From Nitrospirota bacterium (lineage in GTDB: Bacteria; Nitrospirota; UBA9217): DNA of 64,000 nucleotides. The position numbers and the translations under genes were made by a program. The stretch is taken from the NCBI GenBank assembly GCA_963790205.1, contig CAWBNQ010000003.1:512001-576000 (forward strand). Reading direction: 5' to 3'. The notes under the pieces were generated by a model. The model saw nothing but the letters and a program-made list of their open reading frames with translations, did no database searches and was not told the origin of the DNA. Position 1 is the first letter of the stretch, and the number at the start of each line of letters is the position of its first letter. Positions 7,360-55,935 of the stretch are shown in pieces.

Positions 7360-7628
7360 TCTATGTTAAAAAGCAAGTCTTTCTTTTGGCATAAACGCAT
7401 CTCTTTTATTAAGGAGCGATTTATAGCGAACGCAATCTTCAAACCCAATCTTCTATGAGCAGACAGTCTTCGTTGATGAAGAAAACGCTGCATTGCCTTG
7501 ATTAATTATGAAGGCGTGGGTTCGTAGTCTGTGGAAGCACAGACGGCATCTTTCGATCCGCTGTAGATTACGCAAGACGATACCCACGGTGAAACACGGG
7601 TTTAAGATCGGCTATAAATATCGGTTTT
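7360..7628 (-). ncRNA. Putative bridge/seekRNA region, IS110 copy 1
   Basis: Reverse complement of 55557-55825; target-matching guide at 7565-7574. Confidence 0.8.
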
Positions 7629-8699
7629 TTATTGAACAACCGCCGTAGTGTATTCTTGTTGGTTCTTTAAAACGTACCGGACGCGGTTTAACAGCTTCCG
7701 GGCGATCCGAACGATAGCTTTGGTCTTTGTCATGTGTTTGCACAGCTCATTGAACGCCATCATTAGGGCAGGGTCTTTTCGCACCGCCGTCCAAGCGCTT
7801 TCGATCAAGACGAAGCGAAGCTGGGCGTTCCGCCTGCCGGTCATGCCGGTTTTAAGGTCCTTTTCCCCGCTGGAATCGGTATCGGGGATAAGGCCAACGT
7901 AGCTGCAGAGTTTGTCGAGCGTCTTGAAACGATTGATGTCATACAGCTCCGTCAAGAGCATCATCGCGGTCAAGGTACTGATTCCCGGCACGGTCTTAAG
8001 TATCCGGACATTGTTCCGATAGTCGTCCGAATTGGCCAGGGCGCGGATCGCCCGGTTCATCTCGGCAATGATATGCCGAAGATGCTTAAGCTCGTCTAAG
8101 TGTATCTTGAGTGATAGGTTGCCGCTGGCCCGCTCCATTTGTACGGACTCGATCCAATTGATGAAGCGTTTGGACCAGTAACCGTTGATGAAATCGTCCG
8201 GTATGTCGATACCGTAAAAGCTCAGGATCGACTTGATCTGGTTCTTGCAGCGAGTTTGTTTCCTTACCATGCTATTTCGAGTACGAAGGAGGCTGCGGTC
8301 CTCGACTTTTGGTCGCGTAGGGACATAGATCCCTTCGATGTCGCCGTTTCTGAGGCTCCGGGCTAGCTTGCGGCAGTCCACCCGGTCGGTCTTGCCTGCG
8401 CGCTCTTTGTCTTTTGTGGGCACATCCGCCGGATTGACCACGAGACATTGTATGCCTCGCTCCTGAAGCCGGTCATGTATCCAGAAACCGGAGTAACCGG
8501 CCTCATAGACCGACTTATAGGCTGCACCCGGAAAATTGCGTTTGAGATAGTTTACCAGCACCCCGACCTCCGGAGGTTGTGAAAAGGTCTTATGCTCGAA
8601 CTGATCGGTAAAAATACTGATGCTCCAACTTTTCTTATGAATGTCCATACCGACATAAATTTGTTGACCAGTGAAATCGAGTCTGCTAACGTTATTCAT
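7629..8699 (-). CDS. IS110 family transposase/recombinase
   Basis: DEDD RuvC-like motifs (GMDIHK, YEAG, KTDRVD) and Transposase_20 domain (TVPGIS, YVGLIP...SSGE, RNAQLR). Confidence 0.96.
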   Translation of the reverse strand: MNNVSRLDFTGQQIYVGMDIHKKSWSISIFTDQFEHKTFSQPPEVGVLVNYLKRNFPGAAYKSVYEAGYSGFWIHDRLQERGIQCLVVNPADVPTKDKERAGKTDRVDCRKLARSLRNGDIEGIYVPTRPKVEDRSLLRTRNSMVRKQTRCKNQIKSILSFYGIDIPDDFINGYWSKRFINWIESVQMERASGNLSLKIHLDELKHLRHIIAEMNRAIRALANSDDYRNNVRILKTVPGISTLTAMMLLTELYDINRFKTLDKLCSYVGLIPDTDSSGEKDLKTGMTGRRNAQLRFVLIESAWTAVRKDPALMMAFNELCKHMTKTKAIVRIARKLLNRVRYVLKNQQEYTTAVVQ

Positions 8700-8821
8700 G
8701 GCAAGTCTCCTTTTGGTGTATTTTGGTCCGGGATAGACCTAATATACCTTAAGTCAGACTTGCCTTTTTAATCATAAGGTCTGTGGATAAAAAAGACCTG
8801 AGGAGTTGCAGTCGTATGTTT

Positions 8822-15762: not shown

Positions 15763-15885
15763 GACTTATATTATAATTCGATGGCAACCAAGCAGGTCTT
15801 TTTTTATCCACAGATTACGCAGATTTCACAGATGAAACAAAGCCGGAATTACCGGTCTTAAAATCTGCGGCCGTCTGCGTAATCT

Positions 15886-16154
15886 TCTATGTTAAAAAGC
15901 AAGTCTTTCTTTTGGCATAAACGCATCTCTTTTATTAAGGAGCGATTTATAGCGAACGCAATCTTCAAACCCAATCTTCTATGAGCAGACAGTCTTCGTT
16001 GATGAAGAAAACGCTGCATTGCCTTGATTAATTATGAAGGCGTGGGTTCGTAGTCTGTGGAAGCACAGACGGCATCTTTCGATCCGCTGTAGATTACGCA
16101 AGACGATACCCACGGTGAAACACGGGTTTAAGATCGGCTATAAATATCGGTTTT
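15886..16154 (-). ncRNA. Putative bridge/seekRNA region, IS110 copy 2
   Basis: Matches the right non-coding end of copies 1 and 3. Confidence 0.8.
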
Positions 16155-17225
16155 TTATTGAACAACCGCCGTAGTGTATTCTTGTTGGTTCTTTAAAACG
16201 TACCGGACGCGGTTTAACAGCTTCCGGGCGATCCGAACGATAGCTTTGGTCTTTGTCATGTGTTTGCACAGCTCATTGAACGCCATCATTAGGGCAGGGT
16301 CTTTTCGCACCGCCGTCCAAGCGCTTTCGATCAAGACGAAGCGAAGCTGGGCGTTCCGCCTGCCGGTCATGCCGGTTTTAAGGTCCTTTTCCCCGCTGGA
16401 ATCGGTATCGGGGATAAGGCCAACGTAGCTGCAGAGTTTGTCGAGCGTCTTGAAACGATTGATGTCATACAGCTCCGTCAAGAGCATCATCGCGGTCAAG
16501 GTACTGATTCCCGGCACGGTCTTAAGTATCCGGACATTGTTCCGATAGTCGTCCGAATTGGCCAGGGCGCGGATCGCCCGGTTCATCTCGGCAATGATAT
16601 GCCGAAGATGCTTAAGCTCGTCTAAGTGTATCTTGAGTGATAGGTTGCCGCTGGCCCGCTCCATTTGTACGGACTCGATCCAATTGATGAAGCGTTTGGA
16701 CCAGTAACCGTTGATGAAATCGTCCGGTATGTCGATACCGTAAAAGCTCAGGATCGACTTGATCTGGTTCTTGCAGCGAGTTTGTTTCCTTACCATGCTA
16801 TTTCGAGTACGAAGGAGGCTGCGGTCCTCGACTTTTGGTCGCGTAGGGACATAGATCCCTTCGATGTCGCCGTTTCTGAGGCTCCGGGCTAGCTTGCGGC
16901 AGTCCACCCGGTCGGTCTTGCCTGCGCGCTCTTTGTCTTTTGTGGGCACATCCGCCGGATTGACCACGAGACATTGTATGCCTCGCTCCTGAAGCCGGTC
17001 ATGTATCCAGAAACCGGAGTAACCGGCCTCATAGACCGACTTATAGGCTGCACCCGGAAAATTGCGTTTGAGATAGTTTACCAGCACCCCGACCTCCGGA
17101 GGTTGTGAAAAGGTCTTATGCTCGAACTGATCGGTAAAAATACTGATGCTCCAACTTTTCTTATGAATGTCCATACCGACATAAATTTGTTGACCAGTGA
17201 AATCGAGTCTGCTAACGTTATTCAT
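16155..17225 (-). CDS. IS110 family transposase/recombinase
   Basis: 356 aa, identical to copies 1 and 3 in the ORF track. Confidence 0.96.
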   Translation of the reverse strand: MNNVSRLDFTGQQIYVGMDIHKKSWSISIFTDQFEHKTFSQPPEVGVLVNYLKRNFPGAAYKSVYEAGYSGFWIHDRLQERGIQCLVVNPADVPTKDKERAGKTDRVDCRKLARSLRNGDIEGIYVPTRPKVEDRSLLRTRNSMVRKQTRCKNQIKSILSFYGIDIPDDFINGYWSKRFINWIESVQMERASGNLSLKIHLDELKHLRHIIAEMNRAIRALANSDDYRNNVRILKTVPGISTLTAMMLLTELYDINRFKTLDKLCSYVGLIPDTDSSGEKDLKTGMTGRRNAQLRFVLIESAWTAVRKDPALMMAFNELCKHMTKTKAIVRIARKLLNRVRYVLKNQQEYTTAVVQ

Positions 17226-17352
17226 GGCAAGTCTCCTTTTGGTGTATTTTGGTCCGGGATAGACCTAATATACCTTAAGTCAGACTTGCCTTTTTAATCA
17301 TAAGGTCTGCGGATAGATTGGTTTATCTTGTCATCTGAAGGTCAGTCGAGGC

Positions 17353-23748: not shown

Positions 23749-25152
23749 TTACTTGCCGAATTGAGCTTCAAGGGTGGCCGTAAAGGCAAAGGTGGAATTC
23801 CTCCTGCCGTGCACATCTTTCGGCCAGGTGACCTCGGGGGAAAGCTCAAAGAATAGCCAGGACCGGTAAAAATTCCGGCGATAGAGCGATCCGATCCGGT
23901 AATCTTGAACAACCCAATCCGGATGGCTCACTCCCCACATGCTGGTATCGTAAGAAATGGCGCTCTTGGGCGTCAATTGACTGAAAAGACTGATCCCGGT
24001 ATTCCAGGTTACGCCGGCCGTGCCTTCAGAATAGGTTGCATAATTGCTCCACCGCAGGAGCGTAAAGGTGGTGATTTTCTTTTCAAGATCAAGCTCTGAC
24101 GTTTCAGTGAAACCTTCAATATATCGATCGAGAGCGGTTTCGTTGAAGCGTAAGAGGTAAGCCTTGCCAAGGGTCTTCGTGTACTGGTACCGCAGCCGGG
24201 CAAAAGGATCGAGGGGCCAGTGGGCCTTGATGCCCATGTCATAGCTGACCAGTGAACGGAGCAAGGTTAGAAAATCCGCCCGCACGCCAACGGTGGGACT
24301 TCTGGCGCCCGTTGCGGGGTCGAGTCCCGGATCGACGGCCTGACCGGGCTGAGTAGTGAATTTATCGGCAGTGGACCTTGATTCGACGACTAATCTCGCT
24401 TTTTTCAGGAGCCTGTCCAGGTTGGGCAAACGATACCGGAAAGAGAAATCGCGGAGATACGTAAAGCCCTGCCCCTCGGTCCACCGGGCGGAATTTCTCC
24501 ATCTGACGAAAGCGCCGGGCCGGACGTCTTCCAGCGTATGTTCCTGACCGAAGAAGCTGTCAAACCACACCGCCGGCTCACAGAGGTTCTTATCCACGAA
24601 GCCATGGATCTGATCAAGCCATGTTCTTCCTTCCACTTCGGCGGTCGCGCACAGGTCTATTTTCGGCCCGGGTTTCTCCGGCAGGGTATGCGTCGGCGCG
24701 CTCACGAGGTTGCCGGCCGTCGGGGTAGGTTTTGTTACCGGCTGTTCTCCCGCTGGCGAAGGTGAAGGCGTAATCTGCCGGGTATTCGTCGGCGCGCTCA
24801 GGGGATTGCCGGCCGTCGGGATCGGTTTTGTTACCGGCTGTTCTCCCGCCGGCGAAGGTGGAGGCGTAATCTGCAGGGTGTTCGTTGGCGCGCTTACGGG
24901 CTTACTGTCTGTCGCAGCCGGATTTATGGACGGCTGTCCCGGGGTTTGAGCGGTTGCTCCCTGAAAACCGGCCCCGACAAGGATGAGAACGGCGCATACC
25001 GTGATCGTGAAACAGCCGAGACGTCCCGGAACAATCTTTCTGCACTGTTCGGCTTTGATATAACCCCCCTTGCCTCGGCATCGCACTCGAAAGTTCTCTG
25101 TTTTATAATAGCATAAACGATGAGGAGGATAAAGCGCGAATAGAGGGAGCAT
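23749..25152 (-). CDS. Putative outer-membrane beta-barrel protein with Pro/Thr-rich tandem repeat (start uncertain)
   Basis: Hydrophobic signal-like segment, 32-aa repeat, 'WFDSFFG', aromatic strands, ends LEAQFGK. Confidence 0.7.
   Translation of the reverse strand: MLPLFALYPPHRLCYYKTENFRVRCRGKGGYIKAEQCRKIVPGRLGCFTITVCAVLILVGAGFQGATAQTPGQPSINPAATDSKPVSAPTNTLQITPPPSPAGEQPVTKPIPTAGNPLSAPTNTRQITPSPSPAGEQPVTKPTPTAGNLVSAPTHTLPEKPGPKIDLCATAEVEGRTWLDQIHGFVDKNLCEPAVWFDSFFGQEHTLEDVRPGAFVRWRNSARWTEGQGFTYLRDFSFRYRLPNLDRLLKKARLVVESRSTADKFTTQPGQAVDPGLDPATGARSPTVGVRADFLTLLRSLVSYDMGIKAHWPLDPFARLRYQYTKTLGKAYLLRFNETALDRYIEGFTETSELDLEKKITTFTLLRWSNYATYSEGTAGVTWNTGISLFSQLTPKSAISYDTSMWGVSHPDWVVQDYRIGSLYRRNFYRSWLFFELSPEVTWPKDVHGRRNSTFAFTATLEAQFGK
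24693..24894. repeat. 96-bp in-frame tandem repeat (2.1 units)
   Basis: Units start at 24693, 24789 and 24885; encode SAPTNT.QITP.PSPAGEQPVTKP.PTAGN.. Confidence 0.9.
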
Positions 25153-26935: not shown

Positions 26936-29900
26936 TTATGGGGCAGTAAAGAGCGGCGCCTCGATAGTGGCGCTGTTGCCGTTCAGATCATTAACGCCGA
27001 TTTGCCACTGATACGTCACCCCGGTCGAAAGGGCCGACTGCGAGGCGCTCCCGTCCACATTGTACAAGACCGAGGTCGTCGTCAGGGTCCCATTCTGCGG
27101 ATAGTTCCACACAAAGCCCCCGTTGTTCTGGCCCACGAAAATATTATAGGAGTTGAAATTCGTGGGCAACGGGCTCGGCGCCGTCCAGGTGAACGTGGGC
27201 GTGTCGACGTTCGTGGCGTTCAAGTTTGTCGCAAAGTTGTCGAGCACGGCGGTCACTGTCGCGTTCAGGGTTTCTGATGTCCCGTCCGAGTAGGCGACTG
27301 CGAAGGCATAGGAATCACCCACCGTCGGCCTGACCGAGCCGAGGTTGATATAGAGATAGCCCTGCTGCCCGGCCTCCAGATCCAGGGGGACCGGGGTATT
27401 CGGCCCTGAGGTGAGCGTTGCCGCTACCGGCAGCTTCACATTGCCGGAAACCTGAATTTGCTGCAAGCTGTAAGATTCATTGCTGTTGTAGTCCTTGAAG
27501 TGGCTGGTGCTTACATTGGCGAATGCGTTTGCGCCCGAGAGCGTTTGGTTCACTCCCGATAAATTGCCGCTTACGGTCACTGAACTATTATTGCCGTTCG
27601 TATTGCCGATGTCCCCGAGGTCTATCGCGCCGTCCCCGTTCATATCGATGACGGCAATGGGCGTGTAGGTGCCGTTCGGCACGCCCGCGATGCTGTATGA
27701 CGCCGGGCTGGTTGACGGAAGAGTAACAGGCGTGAAGAATATGTGTTCTGTGCCGTTTGTCTTGCTGTCGAGGATCACGTACATTGTCTTTCCTGTGGTA
27801 AGCGTGGACGACGGGAACGAGATCGTGCCTGAAACAGTGTTCAGGCCCGTTGTCGCGTTTATGGTCGTCGAAGTCGGTGAAGACAATACGCTTTCCTGTC
27901 CATTCAGCGACGCAGTAACCGCAAAGTTATACGTTGAAGCGTTCGTAAGCCCGGACACGAATACATGACCGCTGTTATCGCTGGTTGCCGGGACCGTCAA
28001 TTTGGAGCTTGATTTGCTGACCGTGCCGGTTGCGTAGTAGATGTTGTAATGGTCGGAGAACTGATTGCCGTTGGTGTCCACAGCCGGTTTCCATTTGATA
28101 AGCGCGGTGTTGCTGCCGCGGCCTGTCACTTTTACGCTCTGGGGCGCGGGAAGCGGGGATGTCGGCGTGGGATCGGAAATCACGATGTCCGGGCTTATCA
28201 CGTCCGCATTCGTAACGCTGAAGCCGGCTGTACCGCCCAGGGGAGACGCTGCGTTTATCACCCCGGTCTCCGGGCTGCTCGTGTCCATCCAGGCCGCGAG
28301 CGAGTAATCACCCGGAGGAACGCCGCGGATGGTAAACGTCGGCGATGAAGCGAGGTCCGGGATGCTCGTACCCAGACCGGTTGTTCCGCCGCCGTTCATT
28401 TGCAGGACCACATAGACCCTTCCCGTGGAGCCGGACGAAGAGCTCACAATCCCCGAGACGGTGTAGAAGACGTTGGCGCTGAAATTCTCGTTTATGCCTC
28501 CGTTGTTCACGGTCAGCAATATGCTCGCGGGATAGAACGCGGATTCCGCTCCCGCAAGGCTCGGGGTGAGCGTGTAGTTTCCATTCGGGATATTGGAGAT
28601 GGTGTAATTCCCGCTTACGTCCGTCATTGCGGTCACGGTCGGCGACGTGTCGAGCGACAGGAGCACGCCCGGGAGCCAGGTGCTGCCGCCGAAGGTGTTG
28701 AGATACACCGTCCCGGAAATGTTGTAGCCGGTCCCGGTGGCGGCAATGAAGTTGACGCCCGTGATGTCGGCGCTGAGGAACTGCGCGCTGGGCGAAGAGA
28801 AAGTGTAGCCCGTCTCGGAGGCGGTTATGGTATAGGTCTGCCCGCTCAGCAGGTTCGGGATCGCGTAATTGCCGTTTGCGTCGGTCGTTGTGATGCCTCC
28901 GGCGCCGCCGGTCGCCGTTACGGTGACGCCCGGGAAGCCGATGCCGTTGAAGGTCACTTGTCCCGAGATGCCGTACGTCGGGAGAGGCGAGCCCGTGAAG
29001 TTGTTGCCAATAGAGTCCGCACCGGAAATAGTGACCGGTATGCTCGTGGGGCTGAATGTGTAGGTTGCAAGAGACGCTACGACCGAATACGTTCCGTCCG
29101 CGATATTGGAGAAACTATACTGACCGCCGTTGGTCGTCGTCGTGCTGGTTACAAGGTCGCCGCTTAAATTCACCGTGACCCCATCCGCGATTGCGCCGCT
29201 CACGGTGCCTGAGATGTGGTATGTCGGGATGACCGATGCAGTGAAATCAAGGGCCGCAGGGTCCGTGCTCGTTATCGTGACGGGCTGACTTGTTCCCGTG
29301 CTGAAGGTGTACCCGTACTTCGACGGAGTGACGGTGTACGATCCCGGAGAGAGGTTCGTGAAGCTGTAGTGGCCTCCGTTGGTCGTCGTGGTGCTGGTCA
29401 CAAGGTCTCCGCTCAAATTCATCGTGACCCCGTCGGCGATCGCGCCGCCCACCGTGCCGGAGAGGGTGAAGATCGAACTTCCCGGCGTATAGAACGGCGC
29501 CTCCAGGGTGGCGGTGTTGTTGTTCGCATCGGCCACGCTGACCATCCAGCCGTACGCTGTCCCGCCCGCAAGGGACGCAGGATTGGCTTTCCCGTCCGTA
29601 TTGTATGTGACCGTGGTCTGCGAGAACACGCCGTCTTGCGGATACTCCCAGACCGTGCCGCCCATATCCTGGAACACCGAGAGGGAATAGGCGGCATTTG
29701 CAGGCGGCGAAACCGGCGCCGTCCAACTGAAGGTCGGCGTGCCGTCGTTCGGCACGGGTGTGACCGTAAGCGTTTGAGCGAAGCTGTCGAGCACCGCGGT
29801 GACCGCCGAGGCAAGAGTTTCCGAAGATGCGTCGGAATAGGAGACCGAGAAACTATAGTTGTCTCCCGGAGAGGGCCTGTCCGTACCGAAGTCGATAAAG

Positions 29901-32900
29901 AGCATCGAGCCGTTGGCCGTGGTGTCCAGGTCCGTGGGGCCCAGGACATTGGGCCCCGTAAGGGACGCCTGCACCGGGAGTTTCTCATTTCCAATGACGC
30001 CGATATTCCGCAGGCTGTACGATTCGCTTCCCGTACTGTCCTTGCTGTGGTTGGTGCTTAACCGGGGGGATGCGTTCGCCCCCGAGAGCGTCTGGTCCAC
30101 TCCGGCTGTCAGGGAACCGCCGGAGACAGTGACGAAGGCGTTGTTGGAATTCGTATTGCTGATGTCCCCGATGTCGTTCGTGTTGTCGTTGTTCATGTCG
30201 ATTACGGCAAAGGGCGTGTATGAGCCGTCAGGAATGCCGGCGATGCTGTAGGTTGCAGAAGTGCTTAAAAGGTTGGCAATCGGCGCGAAGAATACGCCGT
30301 TCGTGTCGCTGTAGACGCCAACGATCATGTTTTTCCCGTCTGCCGCAGCCGGGTAATAAACAGTACCCGAGATGCCGTTCAATCCCGCGGTCGCGCCGAT
30401 GGTCGCCGTGGCTTCGGAGGACAACGAGCTTTCGGCCCCGCCCAGGACCGCTGTTATGGCGAAGTGATACACTTGCGTGTTCGTGAGCGCGCTCACGATC
30501 GCCATGGCGTCCCCGGCGCCGTTTGCTGTTACGGTCATATGGGAGCTCAACGTAGTGACAGGGTTCGTGTCGTAATAGACGTTGAAATGATCGGCAAGCA
30601 GCTTGCCGTTATTGTCCATGGGCGGCTTCCACATGATAAAGGCGGTCGCATTCCCCGGAAATGCCTTGATGTTCGCCGGCGCGGACGGTGTCGGCAAAGA
30701 CACCGGATCGGCCATGGTAATGGTCTGGCCGGTGATGTCCGCATTGCTGATATTGACGGACGATATGCTGCCCGTGGGAGACGATACGAGCTGCGCGCCG
30801 GTTTCAGGACTGCTCGTGTCCATCCAGGCGGCAAGCGAATAATTCCCCGGAGGAACGCCGCGTATCGTGAATGTCTGTGATGAAACGATACTGGGCCACG
30901 GGATGCTCGTTCCGAGGCCGGTGGACCAGCCGCCGTTATTGCCCACGCTGACATAGACCCTGCCCGTTTGAGTGCCGGAGGGATAGCTTACGATCCCGGA
31001 CAGGGCGAACGTAACGCGCGCGCCGAAGTTCTGGTTCGGCTGGTCCGCATTGCTCATTGTCACCGGCAGACTCGTGGGATAGAACTTTGCGTTCGTTCCC
31101 GCGAAGCTCGGAGTAAGCGTGTATGTGGCGTCCGGAATATTGGAGAGAGAGAAATTTCCATTGCCGTCCGTAACGACGGTTGTTGTCGGCGAAGTATCGA
31201 GCGTCAGGAGCACGCCCTGAAGCCCCAGGCCTCCGCTGAGGCCGAGGACATTCACGGTCCCGGAAAGGGTATGGCCCGATCCGGCAGCGGTGGAGAAGTT
31301 GACGCCGATAATATCGGAGCCACCGATTGCTTGAACGCTATTTGCCGGAGTGAACGAATAGTTCGTTTTCGAGGTCGTTATGGTGTAGGTATACCCGCTC
31401 AGGAGGCCCGCTATGGTGTAATTACCATTGGCATCGGTAGTCGTCGAGCTGCCGAACGTGCCGGCCGCTGTTACGGTTACGCCCGGGAATCCTATGCCGC
31501 CAAACGTCACCTGGCCCGAGATTCTCTGCGTGATAAGCGGCGTTTCCGTGAAGTTAACGACAAGGTCCGTGTCCGTGATCGTGACCGGCTGGCTAACCGA
31601 CGGGCTGAATGTGTACGTTGCAAGAGAGGCGATCACCGAGTATGTGCCGGGGGCCTGATCGGGGAAGCTGTACAAGCCGCCACCGCTTGTGGTGGTCGTG
31701 GCCAATGTTACTATTCCGGCGCTGTCCATCAAATTCACCGTGACCCCGTCGGGGACTGCGCCGCTGATCGTGCCCGAGATGTTGAAGATTGCGCCTCCGG
31801 AAGTATAGGTCGTCTGATACGTCGCGCTGTTCCCGGCCGTATCATTCACGGTGATCTGCCAGTTATAGGCCGTATCGGGCGAAATGGTGGAAGTTGCCCT
31901 GCTGTCCACGTTGAATTGGACCGAGGTCTGAGAGCCCGGCATGTCCACGCCGCTGTTCGGATAGTTCCACAACTGGCCGGCGTTGTTCTGGTTTACCTGG
32001 AGGGTATAGGTATAGGTTGGCGTGGGCGAAGAGGCAGGCGCCGACCAGTTGAACGTGGGCACGACAGCGCTCGGGACCGGATCGACGGTCATGTTCTGCG
32101 CGAAGCTGTCGAGCACGGCCGTCACCGGCGTGATCAGTGTCTCCGTGGTGTTGTCGGCATAGGTGACCGCAAAAGTGTAAGTGTCTCCCGCGGAGGGCCT
32201 GAAGGGACCGGTGCCGATATAAGAAGAGAATGTCCCGGGGTTGCCGTTTCCATCCCGTCCTATGTCCATCGGAACCGGGACATTCGGACCCGAGAGGAGG
32301 GTAAGCTTTACCGGAAGCTTCTTCTGTCTGGTGGCCCCTAGCAGGAGAGTGTACCTGTCCTTCGTCCCATCAGTAGAATGGTTTGTGCCGGCCGCGGTCA
32401 GGGAATTGGCAGCCAAAAGAGCGATGTCCTGCGTCGCGTCGGCATTGTTTATCGTGACCGGTATTTTCGCAGCGCCGTCGATCCCTATGCTCATGGCGCC
32501 GACATTCAGGTAATCGTTTTGGAGCAAGTCGACGAAAGCAAAGGCCTGATAATTGCCGTTCGGAATTCCCGTTATGGTATAGGTGTAGCTCTGGGAACTT
32601 GCCAGCGTTTCGAGCGGGGTGAAATAAATGCCGCTGTCGCCGTATACCCCGACATACAGCGGCTTGGAGTCCGGGACCGGCGCCGGCAGGGTGATCGTGC
32701 CGGATACGCTGAAGGTCGTGCTGTTGTCCGTTGCGGCGGCGCCTATGGTTACGGGACCGACAACAGCGGACGCCGGGCTTTTAAAAGCTCTATCCACAGC
32801 CGAGATCTGATAATAGAGCTGGGCGCCATCGCTAAGTCCTGTCTGGATAAAGACCTGCTGTCCGTAGGCGGGGACGGTGATGGTTGAACTAGTCACAAGA

Positions 32901-35554
32901 GTCGAGTCCGTCCCCCAAGAGATTAGGTACGAATCCGCCATTTCTTTCTGATCAACGTACCGATTGGTGTTAATCGAATAATCGCCTTGCCACGTGATCA
33001 GCGCGGACGATTCGCCCGGGAACACCGCGAGTCCCTGCGGAGTTGGCGGAGCACTTGGAGCGCCCGGGTCGTACAGCGGGACAGTCTGGTTGATCAGATT
33101 CCCCGAGGTAACATTAACTTGAAGAGCGTGTAGATCGGTGGTATTCGGTTCATCCACATTCTTGGTTCCCCATCCGAGATTGTCCATCCTTGCAGTAAGT
33201 CTATACGTTCCCGGAGGAACGCCGTGGATCATGAACGTTCCGGGCGCAGCGATGCTCGTTGAAAGCCTAGTGGATCCGTCCAAGCTCACAACGCCGACGT
33301 AGATCCGTCCCTTCTTGGTCCCTTTGTAGCTCACGCTGCCGGAGACGTTGTACGCTATCTGAGCGCCAAAGTCCTGGGAGGCGCCCCCTCCGTTCACCGT
33401 TGTCAATGCGTTCGGCGGATAGAAGGCGGTGCTCGCACCCGCAAGCGACGGCGTCAGGGTATACGTGCCGTTCGGCACGCCCGTAAACTGATAAAAACCG
33501 TTCGTATCGGTCTTGGTCGTTTTTATGGGAGAGGAGTTGAGCGTCACCGTCATGCTCGGCAGCGGGAAGGTGGACGTGCCGGCGGAAAGGATATGGCCGG
33601 AGATCGTGAACGGGGCCCCCGTGGCAGTGGCAGCAAAGTTGACGCCGGTCAGGTTTGCTCCAGCGATGGTCTTGAGCGGGACCGCTGAGAAGAAATATCC
33701 CGCTGCGCCCGCGGAAAGCGTGTAAGTCCCGTTCTTGAGTCCCTTGATCGTGTAATTGCCCAGGGCATCGGTGGCTACCGTTGCCGGTAATGTCAGGGAC
33801 GCGCCGCTTACCGTGATGACTGTCCCGGCCAGGCCGATCGTGTTGAAGGTCGCCTTGCCCGAGATGCTGAAAGTTGTTCCGCTGCTTGTTGCTGATGCAA
33901 AGTTCACTCCGGTGGTGTCGGCGTTGACGAAACCGGCGCTGCTCAGAGGACTAAACGTATACCCCGTCTTTGCGGGTGTCACGGTGTAAAAGCCGGTGGG
34001 CAGATTTGCAAAGGAGTAGTTGCCGCCGCCATCGGTCATGACCGTGCCGCCGGTCGTGCCGGTAAGGGTCATCAAAACGTTGGTGCCGGTCGCGCCGCTC
34101 ACCGTGCCCGACAGGGTGTGCGCGGTCTCCGTGTATCCTGTGGCCGCAAAATTGGCCGTTGTAAAATTCGCTGTCGTGAGCGCTACATCGGTGACTGCGG
34201 GCTTGAATGCAAAAAGGCTCTTGGCCGCTGAAACCGTGTAGTTTCCCGGCAGGAGGTTCTTAAAAGTATACTTGCCGTTGATGTCGGTGACGATTGTGCC
34301 GGTATCGGCCCCGCCCAGGCTCATGGTGACGCCGGAGAGGGACTTGGCGTTCAGGGTCGCGACGCCGGAGATGGAGAAGAACGGCAGGATCGTGAAATTG
34401 GCGTCGCTCATGTCGGTGGCTATGATCGTGCCGGAGATATTCTTAATGTCCACTTTGACCTTGCACGCGGTCTTGAGGGCCGTCTGCGCGGGCACGGTCC
34501 AGGAATAAGTATAGGCATTAACACTCTGGGTCGGGGCGCTGCTTAAGGGACCCGTTGTGATTACGGTCCAACTGCTTCCGCCGTTTGTCGTGAATGATAC
34601 CGTGGCATTTTTCGCCGCGCTGTTCGAACCGTACATGGTGTAACCGATGGTCGCGGGGTTGGCCTTGGGGTTTACGATCTCCCCGCCATTCGGCGAGGTG
34701 ACCTTGAGCGCCTGGATGGTGAAGGGCGAGGCTGATATTGCGGTGCCCACGATCGCACCCAGGCCGTTGGAGGCCACGACCTTGATCTTTGCAGTGGCAA
34801 CATTGCCGGCCGGCGGCACGGGCACGGTCCATGAATAGTTCATGGTGAAACCCAGACCCGGCAGATTGCCGCCGCCCGGGATCGGCAGCCATGTTGTGCC
34901 GTTGTTCAAGGAGTAGAACAGGTTGTAGTTTTCAGCCGCAGCGGGCGCGTTCCAGGTGATGCCTGCCGTTGAACCGGCCCGGAGAACGTCTCCCGCATGG
35001 GGCGCTGTGATAGCGAGCGCGGTGTTCGGGCTCACCACGACCTTGTCGAGCCAGGCCGCGTCGCTGCCTTTGGTGATCGTCGCGTTCTTGGCGTATTTCC
35101 ATACGAGCGTATGGGTCCCGGCCGGAAGTGTGAACATTTTCTGCTGCCAGTTCACCGTGCCGCTTATCGTGCTCTTGAGGGAGCTGTCGAGGGAAAACGT
35201 TAAAGTGTCATAAGCAGGTTCGGAGGAGACTTGCTGGTAGAAGGAGAGGGATGCCGGTCCGGTCACGGTCGTCATGATCGAAGAATACATGCTGTTGCCG
35301 ATCGGACCGCTTTGGGCCGCCATGGCATTCGAGCCGCCGGGGTACCACGTCGCGGTCTCTGCGGACCAGAGTCCGGAGGCGGTCGAACTGGACGAAGAGA
35401 ACAACAGCGGCGTAATGCCGTCGGTCTGCATGGGATTGTCCAGCGCGTCCGCGAGTGGGTCCGCAGTAGCGCAGGTGATGACAGGAGAAATAAGGCAGGT
35501 CATGATCAGAAATGAAAACAGTGCAGCAAGCTTCCAACTATTCATGCGCGACAT
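26936..35554 (-). CDS. Giant (2872 aa) secreted surface protein with carboxypeptidase-regulatory/CnaB-like and FN3 repeats
   Basis: Signal peptide; T/S/G-rich; repeated 'ISG.V.......GV...L.....TTD.NG.Y.F.....G.YT.TP' domains; three large related modules. Confidence 0.88.
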   Translation of the reverse strand: MSRMNSWKLAALFSFLIMTCLISPVITCATADPLADALDNPMQTDGITPLLFSSSSSTASGLWSAETATWYPGGSNAMAAQSGPIGNSMYSSIMTTVTGPASLSFYQQVSSEPAYDTLTFSLDSSLKSTISGTVNWQQKMFTLPAGTHTLVWKYAKNATITKGSDAAWLDKVVVSPNTALAITAPHAGDVLRAGSTAGITWNAPAAAENYNLFYSLNNGTTWLPIPGGGNLPGLGFTMNYSWTVPVPPAGNVATAKIKVVASNGLGAIVGTAISASPFTIQALKVTSPNGGEIVNPKANPATIGYTMYGSNSAAKNATVSFTTNGGSSWTVITTGPLSSAPTQSVNAYTYSWTVPAQTALKTACKVKVDIKNISGTIIATDMSDANFTILPFFSISGVATLNAKSLSGVTMSLGGADTGTIVTDINGKYTFKNLLPGNYTVSAAKSLFAFKPAVTDVALTTANFTTANFAATGYTETAHTLSGTVSGATGTNVLMTLTGTTGGTVMTDGGGNYSFANLPTGFYTVTPAKTGYTFSPLSSAGFVNADTTGVNFASATSSGTTFSISGKATFNTIGLAGTVITVSGASLTLPATVATDALGNYTIKGLKNGTYTLSAGAAGYFFSAVPLKTIAGANLTGVNFAATATGAPFTISGHILSAGTSTFPLPSMTVTLNSSPIKTTKTDTNGFYQFTGVPNGTYTLTPSLAGASTAFYPPNALTTVNGGGASQDFGAQIAYNVSGSVSYKGTKKGRIYVGVVSLDGSTRLSTSIAAPGTFMIHGVPPGTYRLTARMDNLGWGTKNVDEPNTTDLHALQVNVTSGNLINQTVPLYDPGAPSAPPTPQGLAVFPGESSALITWQGDYSINTNRYVDQKEMADSYLISWGTDSTLVTSSTITVPAYGQQVFIQTGLSDGAQLYYQISAVDRAFKSPASAVVGPVTIGAAATDNSTTFSVSGTITLPAPVPDSKPLYVGVYGDSGIYFTPLETLASSQSYTYTITGIPNGNYQAFAFVDLLQNDYLNVGAMSIGIDGAAKIPVTINNADATQDIALLAANSLTAAGTNHSTDGTKDRYTLLLGATRQKKLPVKLTLLSGPNVPVPMDIGRDGNGNPGTFSSYIGTGPFRPSAGDTYTFAVTYADNTTETLITPVTAVLDSFAQNMTVDPVPSAVVPTFNWSAPASSPTPTYTYTLQVNQNNAGQLWNYPNSGVDMPGSQTSVQFNVDSRATSTISPDTAYNWQITVNDTAGNSATYQTTYTSGGAIFNISGTISGAVPDGVTVNLMDSAGIVTLATTTTSGGGLYSFPDQAPGTYSVIASLATYTFSPSVSQPVTITDTDLVVNFTETPLITQRISGQVTFGGIGFPGVTVTAAGTFGSSTTTDANGNYTIAGLLSGYTYTITTSKTNYSFTPANSVQAIGGSDIIGVNFSTAAGSGHTLSGTVNVLGLSGGLGLQGVLLTLDTSPTTTVVTDGNGNFSLSNIPDATYTLTPSFAGTNAKFYPTSLPVTMSNADQPNQNFGARVTFALSGIVSYPSGTQTGRVYVSVGNNGGWSTGLGTSIPWPSIVSSQTFTIRGVPPGNYSLAAWMDTSSPETGAQLVSSPTGSISSVNISNADITGQTITMADPVSLPTPSAPANIKAFPGNATAFIMWKPPMDNNGKLLADHFNVYYDTNPVTTLSSHMTVTANGAGDAMAIVSALTNTQVYHFAITAVLGGAESSLSSEATATIGATAGLNGISGTVYYPAAADGKNMIVGVYSDTNGVFFAPIANLLSTSATYSIAGIPDGSYTPFAVIDMNNDNTNDIGDISNTNSNNAFVTVSGGSLTAGVDQTLSGANASPRLSTNHSKDSTGSESYSLRNIGVIGNEKLPVQASLTGPNVLGPTDLDTTANGSMLFIDFGTDRPSPGDNYSFSVSYSDASSETLASAVTAVLDSFAQTLTVTPVPNDGTPTFSWTAPVSPPANAAYSLSVFQDMGGTVWEYPQDGVFSQTTVTYNTDGKANPASLAGGTAYGWMVSVADANNNTATLEAPFYTPGSSIFTLSGTVGGAIADGVTMNLSGDLVTSTTTTNGGHYSFTNLSPGSYTVTPSKYGYTFSTGTSQPVTITSTDPAALDFTASVIPTYHISGTVSGAIADGVTVNLSGDLVTSTTTTNGGQYSFSNIADGTYSVVASLATYTFSPTSIPVTISGADSIGNNFTGSPLPTYGISGQVTFNGIGFPGVTVTATGGAGGITTTDANGNYAIPNLLSGQTYTITASETGYTFSSPSAQFLSADITGVNFIAATGTGYNISGTVYLNTFGGSTWLPGVLLSLDTSPTVTAMTDVSGNYTISNIPNGNYTLTPSLAGAESAFYPASILLTVNNGGINENFSANVFYTVSGIVSSSSGSTGRVYVVLQMNGGGTTGLGTSIPDLASSPTFTIRGVPPGDYSLAAWMDTSSPETGVINAASPLGGTAGFSVTNADVISPDIVISDPTPTSPLPAPQSVKVTGRGSNTALIKWKPAVDTNGNQFSDHYNIYYATGTVSKSSSKLTVPATSDNSGHVFVSGLTNASTYNFAVTASLNGQESVLSSPTSTTINATTGLNTVSGTISFPSSTLTTGKTMYVILDSKTNGTEHIFFTPVTLPSTSPASYSIAGVPNGTYTPIAVIDMNGDGAIDLGDIGNTNGNNSSVTVSGNLSGVNQTLSGANAFANVSTSHFKDYNSNESYSLQQIQVSGNVKLPVAATLTSGPNTPVPLDLEAGQQGYLYINLGSVRPTVGDSYAFAVAYSDGTSETLNATVTAVLDNFATNLNATNVDTPTFTWTAPSPLPTNFNSYNIFVGQNNGGFVWNYPQNGTLTTTSVLYNVDGSASQSALSTGVTYQWQIGVNDLNGNSATIEAPLFTAP

Positions 35555-45685: not shown

Positions 45686-47644
45686 TTAAATCGTCTTCGT
45701 TGCCTCGTTCGAGAAGCCGCTTTCATTGCCGGAGCTGTCGTAGGCCGTCACGACAAAATAGTAGGTACCCGGCGCGAGATTACTGACAACGTATGTCGTG
45801 ACATTTCCGACATTCACCACCGTAGTATAATTCCCCGATGATGTTCCCATGTAAACCTTGTAACCCGCCAGATCGGTCAGGGCTGTTCCATCGGTATTGG
45901 TCGTCGGGGCGTTCCATGACAAGGTTGCCGACCCTGTTGTGATCGCCGTAACGGTGAGTGCGGCAGTTGCCGAAACGCCACCCGAGGTCGCCGTGATCGT
46001 CGCAGTCCCGGCGGCCACCGCTGTTGCAAGGCCGTAAGAGCCTGCCGCGTTGCTGATCGTAGCCGCAGCTGTGTTGGACGAGCTCCAGGTCGAGGCTGCG
46101 GTCAGGTCCTGCGTAGTGCTATCCGAAAATGTTCCCGTGGCCTTGAACTGCTGGTTCGCCCCCTGGGCTATGCTTGCCGTGGCTGGAGTGACCGCAATCG
46201 ATACGAGCGTTGCCGGGGTCACGGTGAGGGTGGTCGATCTCGTTATGCTTCCCGACGCTGCCATGATCGTTGTTGAGCCTGTCGAGACCGAGGTGGCCAA
46301 TCCATTGCTGCCCGCAGCATTGCTGATGGTTGCAACGGCCGTGGAGGATGAGCTCCAGGTCACGGCTGCCGTCACGTTCTGCGTCGTGCCGTCCGAGTAA
46401 GTACCTGTGGCTGAGAATTGTTTGGTCGTCCCCTTGGCGACGCTCGGATTGATCGGGGAGACCGCAATGGACACGAGTGTCGCAGCAGTCACGGTCAGAG
46501 CGGTCGATCCTGATATACTTCCCGACGCTGCCGTGATCGTTGATGTGCCTGTGGCCAATGAGGTGGCAAATCCATTGCTGCCCGCGGCATTACTGATGGC
46601 CGCAACGGCAGTACTGGAAGAGCTCCAGGCCGCCACTGTCGTCAGGTTCTGTGTCGTACCGTCCGTGTAAGTACCTGTGGCCGAGAATTGTTTGGTCGTC
46701 CCCTTGGCTATGCTGGGATTGGTCGGGGAGACCGCAATGGACACGAGCGTCGCAGCAGTCACGGTCAGAGTGGTCGAACCCCCTATGCTTCCCAATGCGG
46801 CTGTGATCGTTGCCGATCCCGCGGCTACCGAGGTCGCCAACCCCTTGGAGCCGGCCGTATTGCTGATGGTTGCCGCTCCGGAATTGGATGAACCCCAGGT
46901 CACCGCTGTTGTCAGGTCCTGCGTCGTATTGTCCGAGTAAACTCCGGTTGCCTTGAATTGTATGGCTGTCCCGGCGGCGATGCCCGGATTGGTCGGGGTG
47001 ACCTGGATGGACACGAGCGTAGCCGGGGTCACCGAGAGCGTGGTTGATCCGGCGATACTTCCCGATGTGGCCGTGATCGTCGTCGATCCCGAGGCCACTG
47101 CGGTGGCCAAGCCATTACTGACGGTCGCCACTCCCGTATTGGATGAACTCCAGGTAACCGATGGGGTCAAATCCTGCGTCGTATTGTCTGTGAACGTTCC
47201 CGTTGCCGTGAATTGCTGTGCCGTCCCTTTGGCGATGCCGGGGTTGGTCGGGGTGACCGCAATGGACACGAGTGTTGCCGGGGTCACCGAGAGCGTGGTC
47301 GATCCCGATGTGCTTCCCGACGAGGCCGCGATCGTAGCCTTGCCGACAGCCTTGCCTGTTACATACCCCGCCTTGTTATCGACAGCTGCGACAGTCGTAT
47401 CGGATGAAGTCCAGGCTACTGATGCTGTGACGTCTTGTGTCGTGTTGTCCGAGTAGATGCCGGTCGCTATGAATTGTTGACCCGTACTTGCCGCTATCGC
47501 GGGGGAAGCAGGCGTTACCGAAATAGCTGTCAGTTGGGCTCCGCTGGAGGAAGCAACGCTGCTGACTCCGCCGGCCCCGCATCCTGCCAGGCCCGCAACA
47601 AATAACGATGCCAAAAGAATGAAGCAAGTTTTATTTCTCAGCAT
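45686..47644 (-). CDS. Lipoprotein with six Big_2 (Ig-like) repeats and a C-terminal FN3 domain
   Basis: Lipobox LAGC; six ~90-aa 'LVSIAV.P..P.IA.G...QF.ATG.Y.D.TTQD.T..V.WSSS' repeats; 'LAGYKVY.G', 'YYFVVTAYD..GNES..SNE'. Confidence 0.9.
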   Translation of the reverse strand: MLRNKTCFILLASLFVAGLAGCGAGGVSSVASSSGAQLTAISVTPASPAIAASTGQQFIATGIYSDNTTQDVTASVAWTSSDTTVAAVDNKAGYVTGKAVGKATIAASSGSTSGSTTLSVTPATLVSIAVTPTNPGIAKGTAQQFTATGTFTDNTTQDLTPSVTWSSSNTGVATVSNGLATAVASGSTTITATSGSIAGSTTLSVTPATLVSIQVTPTNPGIAAGTAIQFKATGVYSDNTTQDLTTAVTWGSSNSGAATISNTAGSKGLATSVAAGSATITAALGSIGGSTTLTVTAATLVSIAVSPTNPSIAKGTTKQFSATGTYTDGTTQNLTTVAAWSSSSTAVAAISNAAGSNGFATSLATGTSTITAASGSISGSTALTVTAATLVSIAVSPINPSVAKGTTKQFSATGTYSDGTTQNVTAAVTWSSSSTAVATISNAAGSNGLATSVSTGSTTIMAASGSITRSTTLTVTPATLVSIAVTPATASIAQGANQQFKATGTFSDSTTQDLTAASTWSSSNTAAATISNAAGSYGLATAVAAGTATITATSGGVSATAALTVTAITTGSATLSWNAPTTNTDGTALTDLAGYKVYMGTSSGNYTTVVNVGNVTTYVVSNLAPGTYYFVVTAYDSSGNESGFSNEATKTI

Positions 47645-54363: not shown

Positions 54364-54485
54364 ATATATCAGCAATGAAATATCGGATTTTTTTCTATCC
54401 ACAGACCTTATGATTAAAAAGGCAAGTCTGACTTAAGGTATATTAGGTCTATCCCGGACCAAAATACACCAAAAGGAGACTTGCC

Positions 54486-55556
54486 ATGAATAACGTTAGC
54501 AGACTCGATTTCACTGGTCAACAAATTTATGTCGGTATGGACATTCATAAGAAAAGTTGGAGCATCAGTATTTTTACCGATCAGTTCGAGCATAAGACCT
54601 TTTCACAACCTCCGGAGGTCGGGGTGCTGGTAAACTATCTCAAACGCAATTTTCCGGGTGCAGCCTATAAGTCGGTCTATGAGGCCGGTTACTCCGGTTT
54701 CTGGATACATGACCGGCTTCAGGAGCGAGGCATACAATGTCTCGTGGTCAATCCGGCGGATGTGCCCACAAAAGACAAAGAGCGCGCAGGCAAGACCGAC
54801 CGGGTGGACTGCCGCAAGCTAGCCCGGAGCCTCAGAAACGGCGACATCGAAGGGATCTATGTCCCTACGCGACCAAAAGTCGAGGACCGCAGCCTCCTTC
54901 GTACTCGAAATAGCATGGTAAGGAAACAAACTCGCTGCAAGAACCAGATCAAGTCGATCCTGAGCTTTTACGGTATCGACATACCGGACGATTTCATCAA
55001 CGGTTACTGGTCCAAACGCTTCATCAATTGGATCGAGTCCGTACAAATGGAGCGGGCCAGCGGCAACCTATCACTCAAGATACACTTAGACGAGCTTAAG
55101 CATCTTCGGCATATCATTGCCGAGATGAACCGGGCGATCCGCGCCCTGGCCAATTCGGACGACTATCGGAACAATGTCCGGATACTTAAGACCGTGCCGG
55201 GAATCAGTACCTTGACCGCGATGATGCTCTTGACGGAGCTGTATGACATCAATCGTTTCAAGACGCTCGACAAACTCTGCAGCTACGTTGGCCTTATCCC
55301 CGATACCGATTCCAGCGGGGAAAAGGACCTTAAAACCGGCATGACCGGCAGGCGGAACGCCCAGCTTCGCTTCGTCTTGATCGAAAGCGCTTGGACGGCG
55401 GTGCGAAAAGACCCTGCCCTAATGATGGCGTTCAATGAGCTGTGCAAACACATGACAAAGACCAAAGCTATCGTTCGGATCGCCCGGAAGCTGTTAAACC
55501 GCGTCCGGTACGTTTTAAAGAACCAACAAGAATACACTACGGCGGTTGTTCAATAA
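54486..55556 (+). CDS. IS110 family transposase/recombinase
   Basis: 356 aa, identical to copies 1 and 2; AAGGAG RBS. Confidence 0.96.
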   Translation: MNNVSRLDFTGQQIYVGMDIHKKSWSISIFTDQFEHKTFSQPPEVGVLVNYLKRNFPGAAYKSVYEAGYSGFWIHDRLQERGIQCLVVNPADVPTKDKERAGKTDRVDCRKLARSLRNGDIEGIYVPTRPKVEDRSLLRTRNSMVRKQTRCKNQIKSILSFYGIDIPDDFINGYWSKRFINWIESVQMERASGNLSLKIHLDELKHLRHIIAEMNRAIRALANSDDYRNNVRILKTVPGISTLTAMMLLTELYDINRFKTLDKLCSYVGLIPDTDSSGEKDLKTGMTGRRNAQLRFVLIESAWTAVRKDPALMMAFNELCKHMTKTKAIVRIARKLLNRVRYVLKNQQEYTTAVVQ

Positions 55557-55825
55557 AAAACCGATATTTATAGCCGATCTTAAACCCGTGTTTCACCGTG
55601 GGTATCGTCTTGCGTAATCTACAGCGGATCGAAAGATGCCGTCTGTGCTTCCACAGACTACGAACCCACGCCTTCATAATTAATCAAGGCAATGCAGCGT
55701 TTTCTTCATCAACGAAGACTGTCTGCTCATAGAAGATTGGGTTTGAAGATTGCGTTCGCTATAAATCGCTCCTTAATAAAAGAGATGCGTTTATGCCAAA
55801 AGAAAGACTTGCTTTTTAACATAGA
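55557..55825 (+). ncRNA. Putative bridge/seekRNA region, IS110 copy 3
   Basis: Stem 55597-55608/55660-55670 encloses an internal loop with target-matching TGCGTAATCT (55611-55620) and TCCACAGA (55650-55657) and a GAAA-capped hairpin; donor-matching CATAGAAGA at 55728-55736. Confidence 0.85.
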
Positions 55826-55935
55826 AGATTACTCAGATTGCACAGATTAATGAGGCCGGAATTTTTGGGTTTTAAATCTGCGTCCGTCTGCGAAATCTGC
55901 GGATAGATCGGCTTTTCGCGTTTTTGCCTCATCCT

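Follow-up and report, generated by a model that had tools for sequence, protein, structure and literature searches.

An IS110-family insertion sequence from a Nitrospirota bacterium with IS1111-type layout and a right end predicted to encode a bispecific bridge RNA

The window, a stretch of 64,000 nucleotides from the genome of a Nitrospirota bacterium, very probably carries an insertion sequence of the IS110 family with IS1111-type layout, whose right end encodes a bispecific bridge RNA. Comparative sequence analysis establishes its four guide segments, two handshake dinucleotides, 2-nt core, boundaries and target. By its target loop, donor loop, handshakes, protein domains and core the element is a member of the IS110 family, while its membership of the IS1111 group is partial and concerns layout and guide order. 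RNA-guided recombination by IS110 elements was already described in 2024; judged by its sequence, the present element is a well-supported new example from an unnamed branch.

The element, its recombinase and its relatives

The element comprises 1,421 bp (54405-55825) and is flanked by two AG core dinucleotides on the + strand (54403-54404, which reads CT on the - strand, and 55826-55827). It has neither terminal inverted repeats nor a target duplication and recombines at a short common core, as is characteristic of the family. Two further copies in the window, both on the - strand (7360-8780, with the RNA at 7433-7612, and 15886-17306, with the RNA at 15959-16138), are identical to it from junction to junction. 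The genome contains six full copies, all 100% identical, and the description of the element as recently active in the first-pass annotation is thereby borne out. AG is present at both junctions of all six, and vacant sites have a single AG. Two partial matches, also 100% identical, cover element nucleotides 1-727 at the end of contig C11 (C11:1-727, the 5' half) and 725-1425 on contig C3 (C3:1073730-1074430, the 3' half, preceded by unrelated single-copy DNA). They overlap at nucleotides 725-727 and look like halves of a seventh copy that was split or rearranged, unless the assembly is in error.

The recombinase (356 amino acids; 54486-55556, + strand) contains the domains DEDD_Tnp_IS110 and Transposase_20 (PF01548, PF02371) and scores 210 bits against the NCBIfam model NF033542, the cut-off of which is 140. 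Residues D19, E66, D105, D108 and S277 align with the catalytic residues of IS621; among 22 sequences D105 is near-invariant and the other four are invariant. By these residues the protein is an intact DEDD-plus-serine recombinase. It had also been called compact, a label that does not suit it next to the 326 amino acids of IS621 (PMC11208158) and the 330-350 reported for IS1111 elements (PMC11187229). Similarity to IS621 is marginal (E 5e-6), and identity amounts to approximately 21% with IS4321 and 27-28% with the ISSso6/ISEc45/ISCARN28 group. The latter is the nearest named branch in a small recombinase tree, in which the clade of the present element is sister to ISSso6 (support 93/91) and lies outside the IS4321/ISPpu25/ISMno14 branch; this tree comprises 11 reference proteins, contains several long branches and has no firm root. 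The idea that ISSso6 is ISEc21-like proved wrong. ISCARN28 is one of six elements for which Durrant et al. drew a bridge RNA, and three proteins of the clade are found in their Supplementary Table 1, where they bear no ISfinder name (PMC11208160). When the ISfinder proteins of Siddiquee et al. were searched with nine clade motifs, no match to any of the nine was among those listed, while a control motif gave seven. The clade is large and extends over Nitrospirota, delta-proteobacteria and Bacteroidota. A literature search found no paper on it; a recent set of 86 models for 32,190 bridge RNAs may include it (10.64898/2026.10.21.760802). Two other IS110 families with 24-27% identity occur in the same genome (C2:81259, C5:26460, C1:230706, C1:496675), and the RNA model of the clade gave no match at their loci.

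The left end (81 bp; 54405-54485, + strand) holds the left-donor half, the -10 hexamer TATGAT of a predicted circle-junction promoter and an imperfect subterminal inverted repeat. The tip of the right end (55800-55825, + strand) holds the imperfect repeat, the -35 hexamer TTGCTT and the right-donor half CATAGA. When the ends are joined, TTGCTT lies 17 nt before TATGAT, forming the predicted promoter, and the spacer measures 17 nt in 67 of 68 rows. A search of 207 loci and the genome with the circle-junction motif yielded four matches, none of them a real junction. The inverted repeat of about 20 bp consists of two perfect 8-bp blocks and is broken by two single-base indels; the benchmark for the IS1111 group is 7-17 bp. 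Among homologues, the left end has a median length of 87 nt (n=75) and the right end of 270 nt (n=85). In a leader hairpin on the + strand (54422-54485; -27.6 kcal/mol) the left arm of the inverted repeat pairs with the region of the ribosome-binding site. In 72 of 75 homologues the 8-nt arm of this hairpin pairs with no more than one mismatch, some of the changes being two-sided, and it is likely that the hairpin damps translation.

The bridge RNA and its target guides

The predicted bridge RNA core of approximately 180 nt (55573-55752, + strand) lies downstream of the ORF and has two loops. A closing stem (55577-55587/55739-55750) encloses a target-binding arm (55597-55670), with an outer stem (55597-55608/55660-55670) and an inner hairpin (55621-55646), and a donor-binding loop, the inner hairpin of which (55694-55726) shares the motif RCAGC...UGUCUGY with the target arm. 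The five strings from which the first-pass annotation had drawn stem, hairpin and loop strands are all found at their positions. The drawn fold is favored by the comparative data, but it is not the minimum of the free RNA. In the minimum-energy fold 55641-55647 pair with 55652-55658, masking the right target guide, and constraining the fold to the drawn stems costs 6.5 kcal/mol. RNAalifold also selects the pairing of the 3' strand of the hairpin with the core and handshake letters, by which the right guide is hidden. This consensus was rejected as working fold: besides hiding a guide, it spoils the symmetry between target arm and donor loop, and the A-U/G-C swap of the other pairing is absent from it. 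It is a possible candidate for the state of the free RNA, as modeled. Given this predicted preference of the free RNA for the guide-hiding fold, the protein is probably required for the working fold.

In the proposed fold 83% of the cells are paired, as compared with 32-43% in slid controls, and 23 of 43 pairs show two-sided changes. At the base of the target hairpin A-U and G-C are swapped (23 versus 31 of 56 rows), and the core of the donor hairpin is nearly invariant. A covariance model built from 56 rows matches all of 46 further clade loci, mostly of 43-60% identity, and none of 18 loci from other IS110 groups, some of which have short flanks; it did not match at the ISSso6 locus or at three loci of similar recombinases of about 400 amino acids. 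Rfam gave no match to a bridge-RNA family and one chance match (E 0.99), and a scan for promoters and terminators returned nothing beyond shuffled sequences. Four RNA runs (X1-X4) gave small shares, with contigs of relatives of about 85-95% identity only and without start, end or joint information. In one sub-branch (L067, L073, L074, L076, L077) an extra palindromic element of about 100 nt is found between RNA and right tip, and at three loci (L040, L158, L184) the RNA lies approximately 170-340 nt past the stop codon, not approximately 20.

The left target guide TGCGTAAT, followed by the core CT (55611-55620, + strand), is complementary to the + strand and pairs with the flank at the right junction. 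The right target guide TCCAC lies within 55650-55658 and is followed by the core AG (55655-55656) and the handshake letters AC (55657-55658); positions 55650-55656 are complementary to the - strand. By simple arithmetic, a 10-mer and an 8-mer match would arise by chance in about 270 nt with frequencies of about 5e-4 and 8e-3. Whether the guides vary together with the flanks was examined in 162 loci, namely, the window, L002 and 160 related loci. Of the 162, 94 were read by a motif parser; the remaining 68 comprise 62 without a loop match and six truncated loci. The comparison used one row per distinct guide, and for the left guide the best of three registers was taken, in the shuffled sets as well. 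Agreement with the guide's own flank amounts to 6.40 of 7 nt on the left (3.21 after shuffling; n=42) and to 3.45 of 4 nt on the right (1.27 after shuffling; n=38), values that were reached in none of 5000 shuffles. Within the clade of at least 81% identity the corresponding values are 6.73 versus 3.60 (n=11, 0/5000) and 3.83 versus 2.00 (n=6, 7/5000). In a held-out set of 54 unused rows, consisting of distant relatives with mis-parsed ends kept in, they are 5.11 versus 2.83 (n=45, 0/5000) and 3.05 versus 1.16 (n=38, 0/5000). All five guide tests (both target guides, handshake, both donor guides) were passed in this set. Since the rows are kin, these shuffle counts overstate significance and are not true probabilities; the number of separate guide changes on the tree is large, and in a quick recombinase tree of 78 of the 94 rows sister branches bear different guides with matching flanks.

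Because the two loop strands change in step with the flanks in two sets of homologues, they are, on this comparative evidence, the target guides of an IS110-type bridge or seek RNA. The assignment, the target-binding loop's layout and the covariation predicted in the first-pass annotation have thus been upheld, and homologues with other targets have other loops. It is scarcely credible that the matches are DNA-level relics, such as captured target or end sequences or products of gene conversion, devoid of a guiding role. The right guide region of the RNA is itself within two mismatches of the target, as such a relic might be, but the matches are split, lie on opposite strands at fixed places of a covarying fold and track the flanks over dozens of different targets, and this covariation largely refutes the idea.

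As its target the element uses a palindromic intergenic repeat, short and of low copy number, the rest of which follows the present copy at 55828-55905 (+ strand). A target had previously been rebuilt from the three copies in the window. The sites do match the guide-read target, one of the six emptied sites without mismatch to its 14 nt and five with one, but the core is AG/CT and not the TCT then proposed. Seven vacant genomic sites match the target with 0-1 mismatch, as compared with 0-2 for each of 20 shuffled targets. All seven run on into the same repeat motif, and a perfect one (15808-15821, + strand) constitutes the other arm of the repeat in which the third copy resides. Conceivably specificity, though guided by RNA, also depends on the target repeat forming a hairpin or cruciform, which has been reported for ISPpu10 (10.64898/2026.03.19.712850). 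Each of the seven right-hand flanks in the genome begins with the repeat motif, most of them being palindromic, and many relatives are likewise inserted in hairpin repeats. Such a requirement is nevertheless unlikely: sites with at most one mismatch fall nearly all within these repeats anyway, so that sequence alone accounts for the choice of site, and several relatives reside in flanks that have no obvious palindrome.

A link of the target repeat to GxxExxY-type genes was considered and dropped. Six examined genes of this type (C1:1054002, C2:41956, C6:63133, C3:657483, C5:46058, C5:80619) are flanked by short inverted tandem repeats similar in style to the targets of the element and its close relatives, but these differ in sequence, and the link is unproven; a literature search on it found no paper. 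The genome contains eight PF13366 matches, two of which were confirmed as TIGR04256.

Donor loop, handshake letters and core

According to the first-pass annotation, guide, target and donor are all defined within the window. The donor loop does lie within 55557-55825, but it had been left unread, as had the handshakes. Its 3' strand (55728-55737, + strand) consists of the right donor guide CATAGA, the core AG and the handshake AT, and its 5' strand contains a short left donor guide AAGG(C) (55686-55690, + strand), four of whose five letters pair with the beginning of the left end. The right donor guide equals the right tip of the element in 81 of 81 rows, with three sequence states (held-out set: 0.62 versus 0.24, 0/5000). 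The left donor guide, with just 4-5 nt, leaves the core uncovered and has frequent mismatches. Its signal is weak in close relatives (4.05 versus 3.84 of 5), whereas in distant, held-out relatives with differing left ends it reaches 3.71 versus 2.65 of 5 (0/5000).

The letters that follow the right target guide and the core are, by their covariation, handshake guides of the type described for IS621 by Hiraizumi et al. in 2024 (PMC11208158). The left end of the window element begins with AC, the same dinucleotide as the target-loop handshake. This identity with the left-end start is found in 74 of 75 rows (held-out set: 0.68 versus 0.23, 0/5000); L141 shows a third state, and there are at least five states overall. 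The donor-loop handshake AT equals the first two letters of the target; among homologues its first letter tracks the target (0.61 versus 0.39), while the second shows no covariation with it (0.15 versus 0.13).

It is conceivable that the working RNA comprises the target arm only (about 75 nt, 55597-55670), with the protein reading the ends through the subterminal repeats and the donor loop being dispensable. From IS1111 elements mainly seekRNAs of 82-96 nt were co-purified (PMC11187229), a target-loop-only RNA of CazIS110-1 is abundant and partly active (10.1101/2025.10.25.684509), and the left donor guide of the present element is weak. However, the invariable agreement of the right donor guide with the element end through three states, the tracking of the left end by the left donor guide in distant relatives, the near-invariance of the donor hairpin core and the imperfection of the inverted repeats make this quite improbable, and a bispecific RNA is preferred.

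As to the core, a trinucleotide TCT was rejected, since its third letter varies in homologues and the left guide varies with it; its presence in the window target is a coincidence. Because the base beside the core varies, A55657 is a handshake letter and not part of the core, which by this comparison is 2 nt long, AG on the + and CT on the - strand. In a census in which the letters at the left junction were left free, both junctions were read in 80 distinct insertions. The pairs were AG/AG in 51, AG/GG in 24, AG/AA in two (one a mis-parse) and GG/GG in one; two more are probable mis-parses, and GG/AG was never found. Hence, 24 of 80 insertions combine a CC target core with a CT donor core, and the reverse does not occur. 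That GG represents the original target letters was confirmed by the hairpin symmetry of several targets. In most of the AG/GG rows the left guide ends with CC, while both right guides retain AG, and the unmatched-core rows occupy about seven places on the tree. The cores of the window element are matched in all six full copies; unmatched cores therefore concern the clade and not this element.

For IS621, the second T of the core is reported as almost invariant, and the design tool of its authors refuses unmatched cores, according to the supplement. On balance, the sequences of the present clade, for which no ISfinder representative was found, lean towards a combination of IS1111-type position of the RNA in the right end, an IS621-type two-loop handshake RNA and natural recombination of unmatched cores. 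If this is true, a third handshake position would in effect be added by core position 9, insertion determined by the top strand would have left its record in the genome as the one-sided inheritance, and the enzyme would escape the rule of matched cores and near-invariant T that holds for IS621. Such tolerance would widen the range of reachable sites and would also be relevant to whether integration is top-strand-only or two-strand.

Proposed mechanism and comparison with known systems

By analogy with IS621, ISEc11 and CazIS110-1, the element would form a circle, the junction of which would create a sigma-70 promoter, and the transcript from this promoter would extend across the recombinase gene and on into the RNA. 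The two pseudo-symmetric loops would be bound by recombinase dimers, acting as a tetramer. The target loop would open the site of 14 nt within the short intergenic palindrome, while the donor loop would hold the joined element ends. The "top" strand (the - strand of the window, paired by the right guides) would be cut immediately 3' of the core and then exchanged. Insertion would be favored by handshake pairs, which would form only after the exchange. Relatives have retargeted the same scaffold to many different repeats through changed guide letters.

With IS621 (PMC11208160, PMC11208158; PDB 8wt6) the element shares a recombinase with DEDD RuvC domain and catalytic serine, two pseudo-symmetric loops with left and right target and donor guides, the CT core, handshake dinucleotides that follow the right guides, a junction promoter (predicted here) and extragenic palindromic repeats as targets. 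It differs in that the RNA lies downstream of the ORF, and not upstream; in that the strand read for target and donor is the one opposite the ORF; in that one long stem closes both loops, whereas those of IS621 follow a 5' stem-loop; and in the short left donor guide that skips the core, with CC target cores in relatives.

Common features with the seekRNA elements ISEc11, ISPa11, ISKpn4 and IS4321 of the IS1111 group (Siddiquee 2024, PMC11187229) are a short left and a long, RNA-bearing right end, the position of the top-strand match 5' of the bottom-strand match in the RNA, the GL-P----SG motif, subterminal inverted repeats and the junction promoter (again predicted here). The present element differs from them in its imperfect inverted repeats, with two indels, and in the clear conservation of a full donor loop. 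Siddiquee et al. noted that there are IS110-type elements whose non-coding region lies downstream (PMC11187229), and for 93% of IS1111 elements bridge RNAs were predicted by Durrant et al., as were multi-loop donor arms (PMC11208160). CazIS110-1 (10.1101/2025.10.25.684509) and ISPpu10 (10.64898/2026.03.19.712850), which belong to lineages different from this clade, are likewise multi-copy IS110 elements with two-loop RNAs and hairpin targets, and the top-strand-dominated transfer described for them would fit the one-sided core inheritance discussed above.

The element thus provides a natural bridge system fully read from its sequence, comprising target, donor, four guides, handshakes and predicted promoter. 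It stems from a big uncharacterised branch that is only about 21-28% identical to named elements, and more than 40 natural guide variants show which letters can change. Orthologue screens in human cells were, in the accounts available, kept to the IS621-like clade, so that distant branches lie outside those screens.

Elsewhere in the window, an ORF of 2,872 amino acids with internal repeats (26936-35554), an ORF of 652 amino acids with 270-nt repeats (45686-47644) and a 96-nt tandem duplication within an ORF (24681-24872) were observed.
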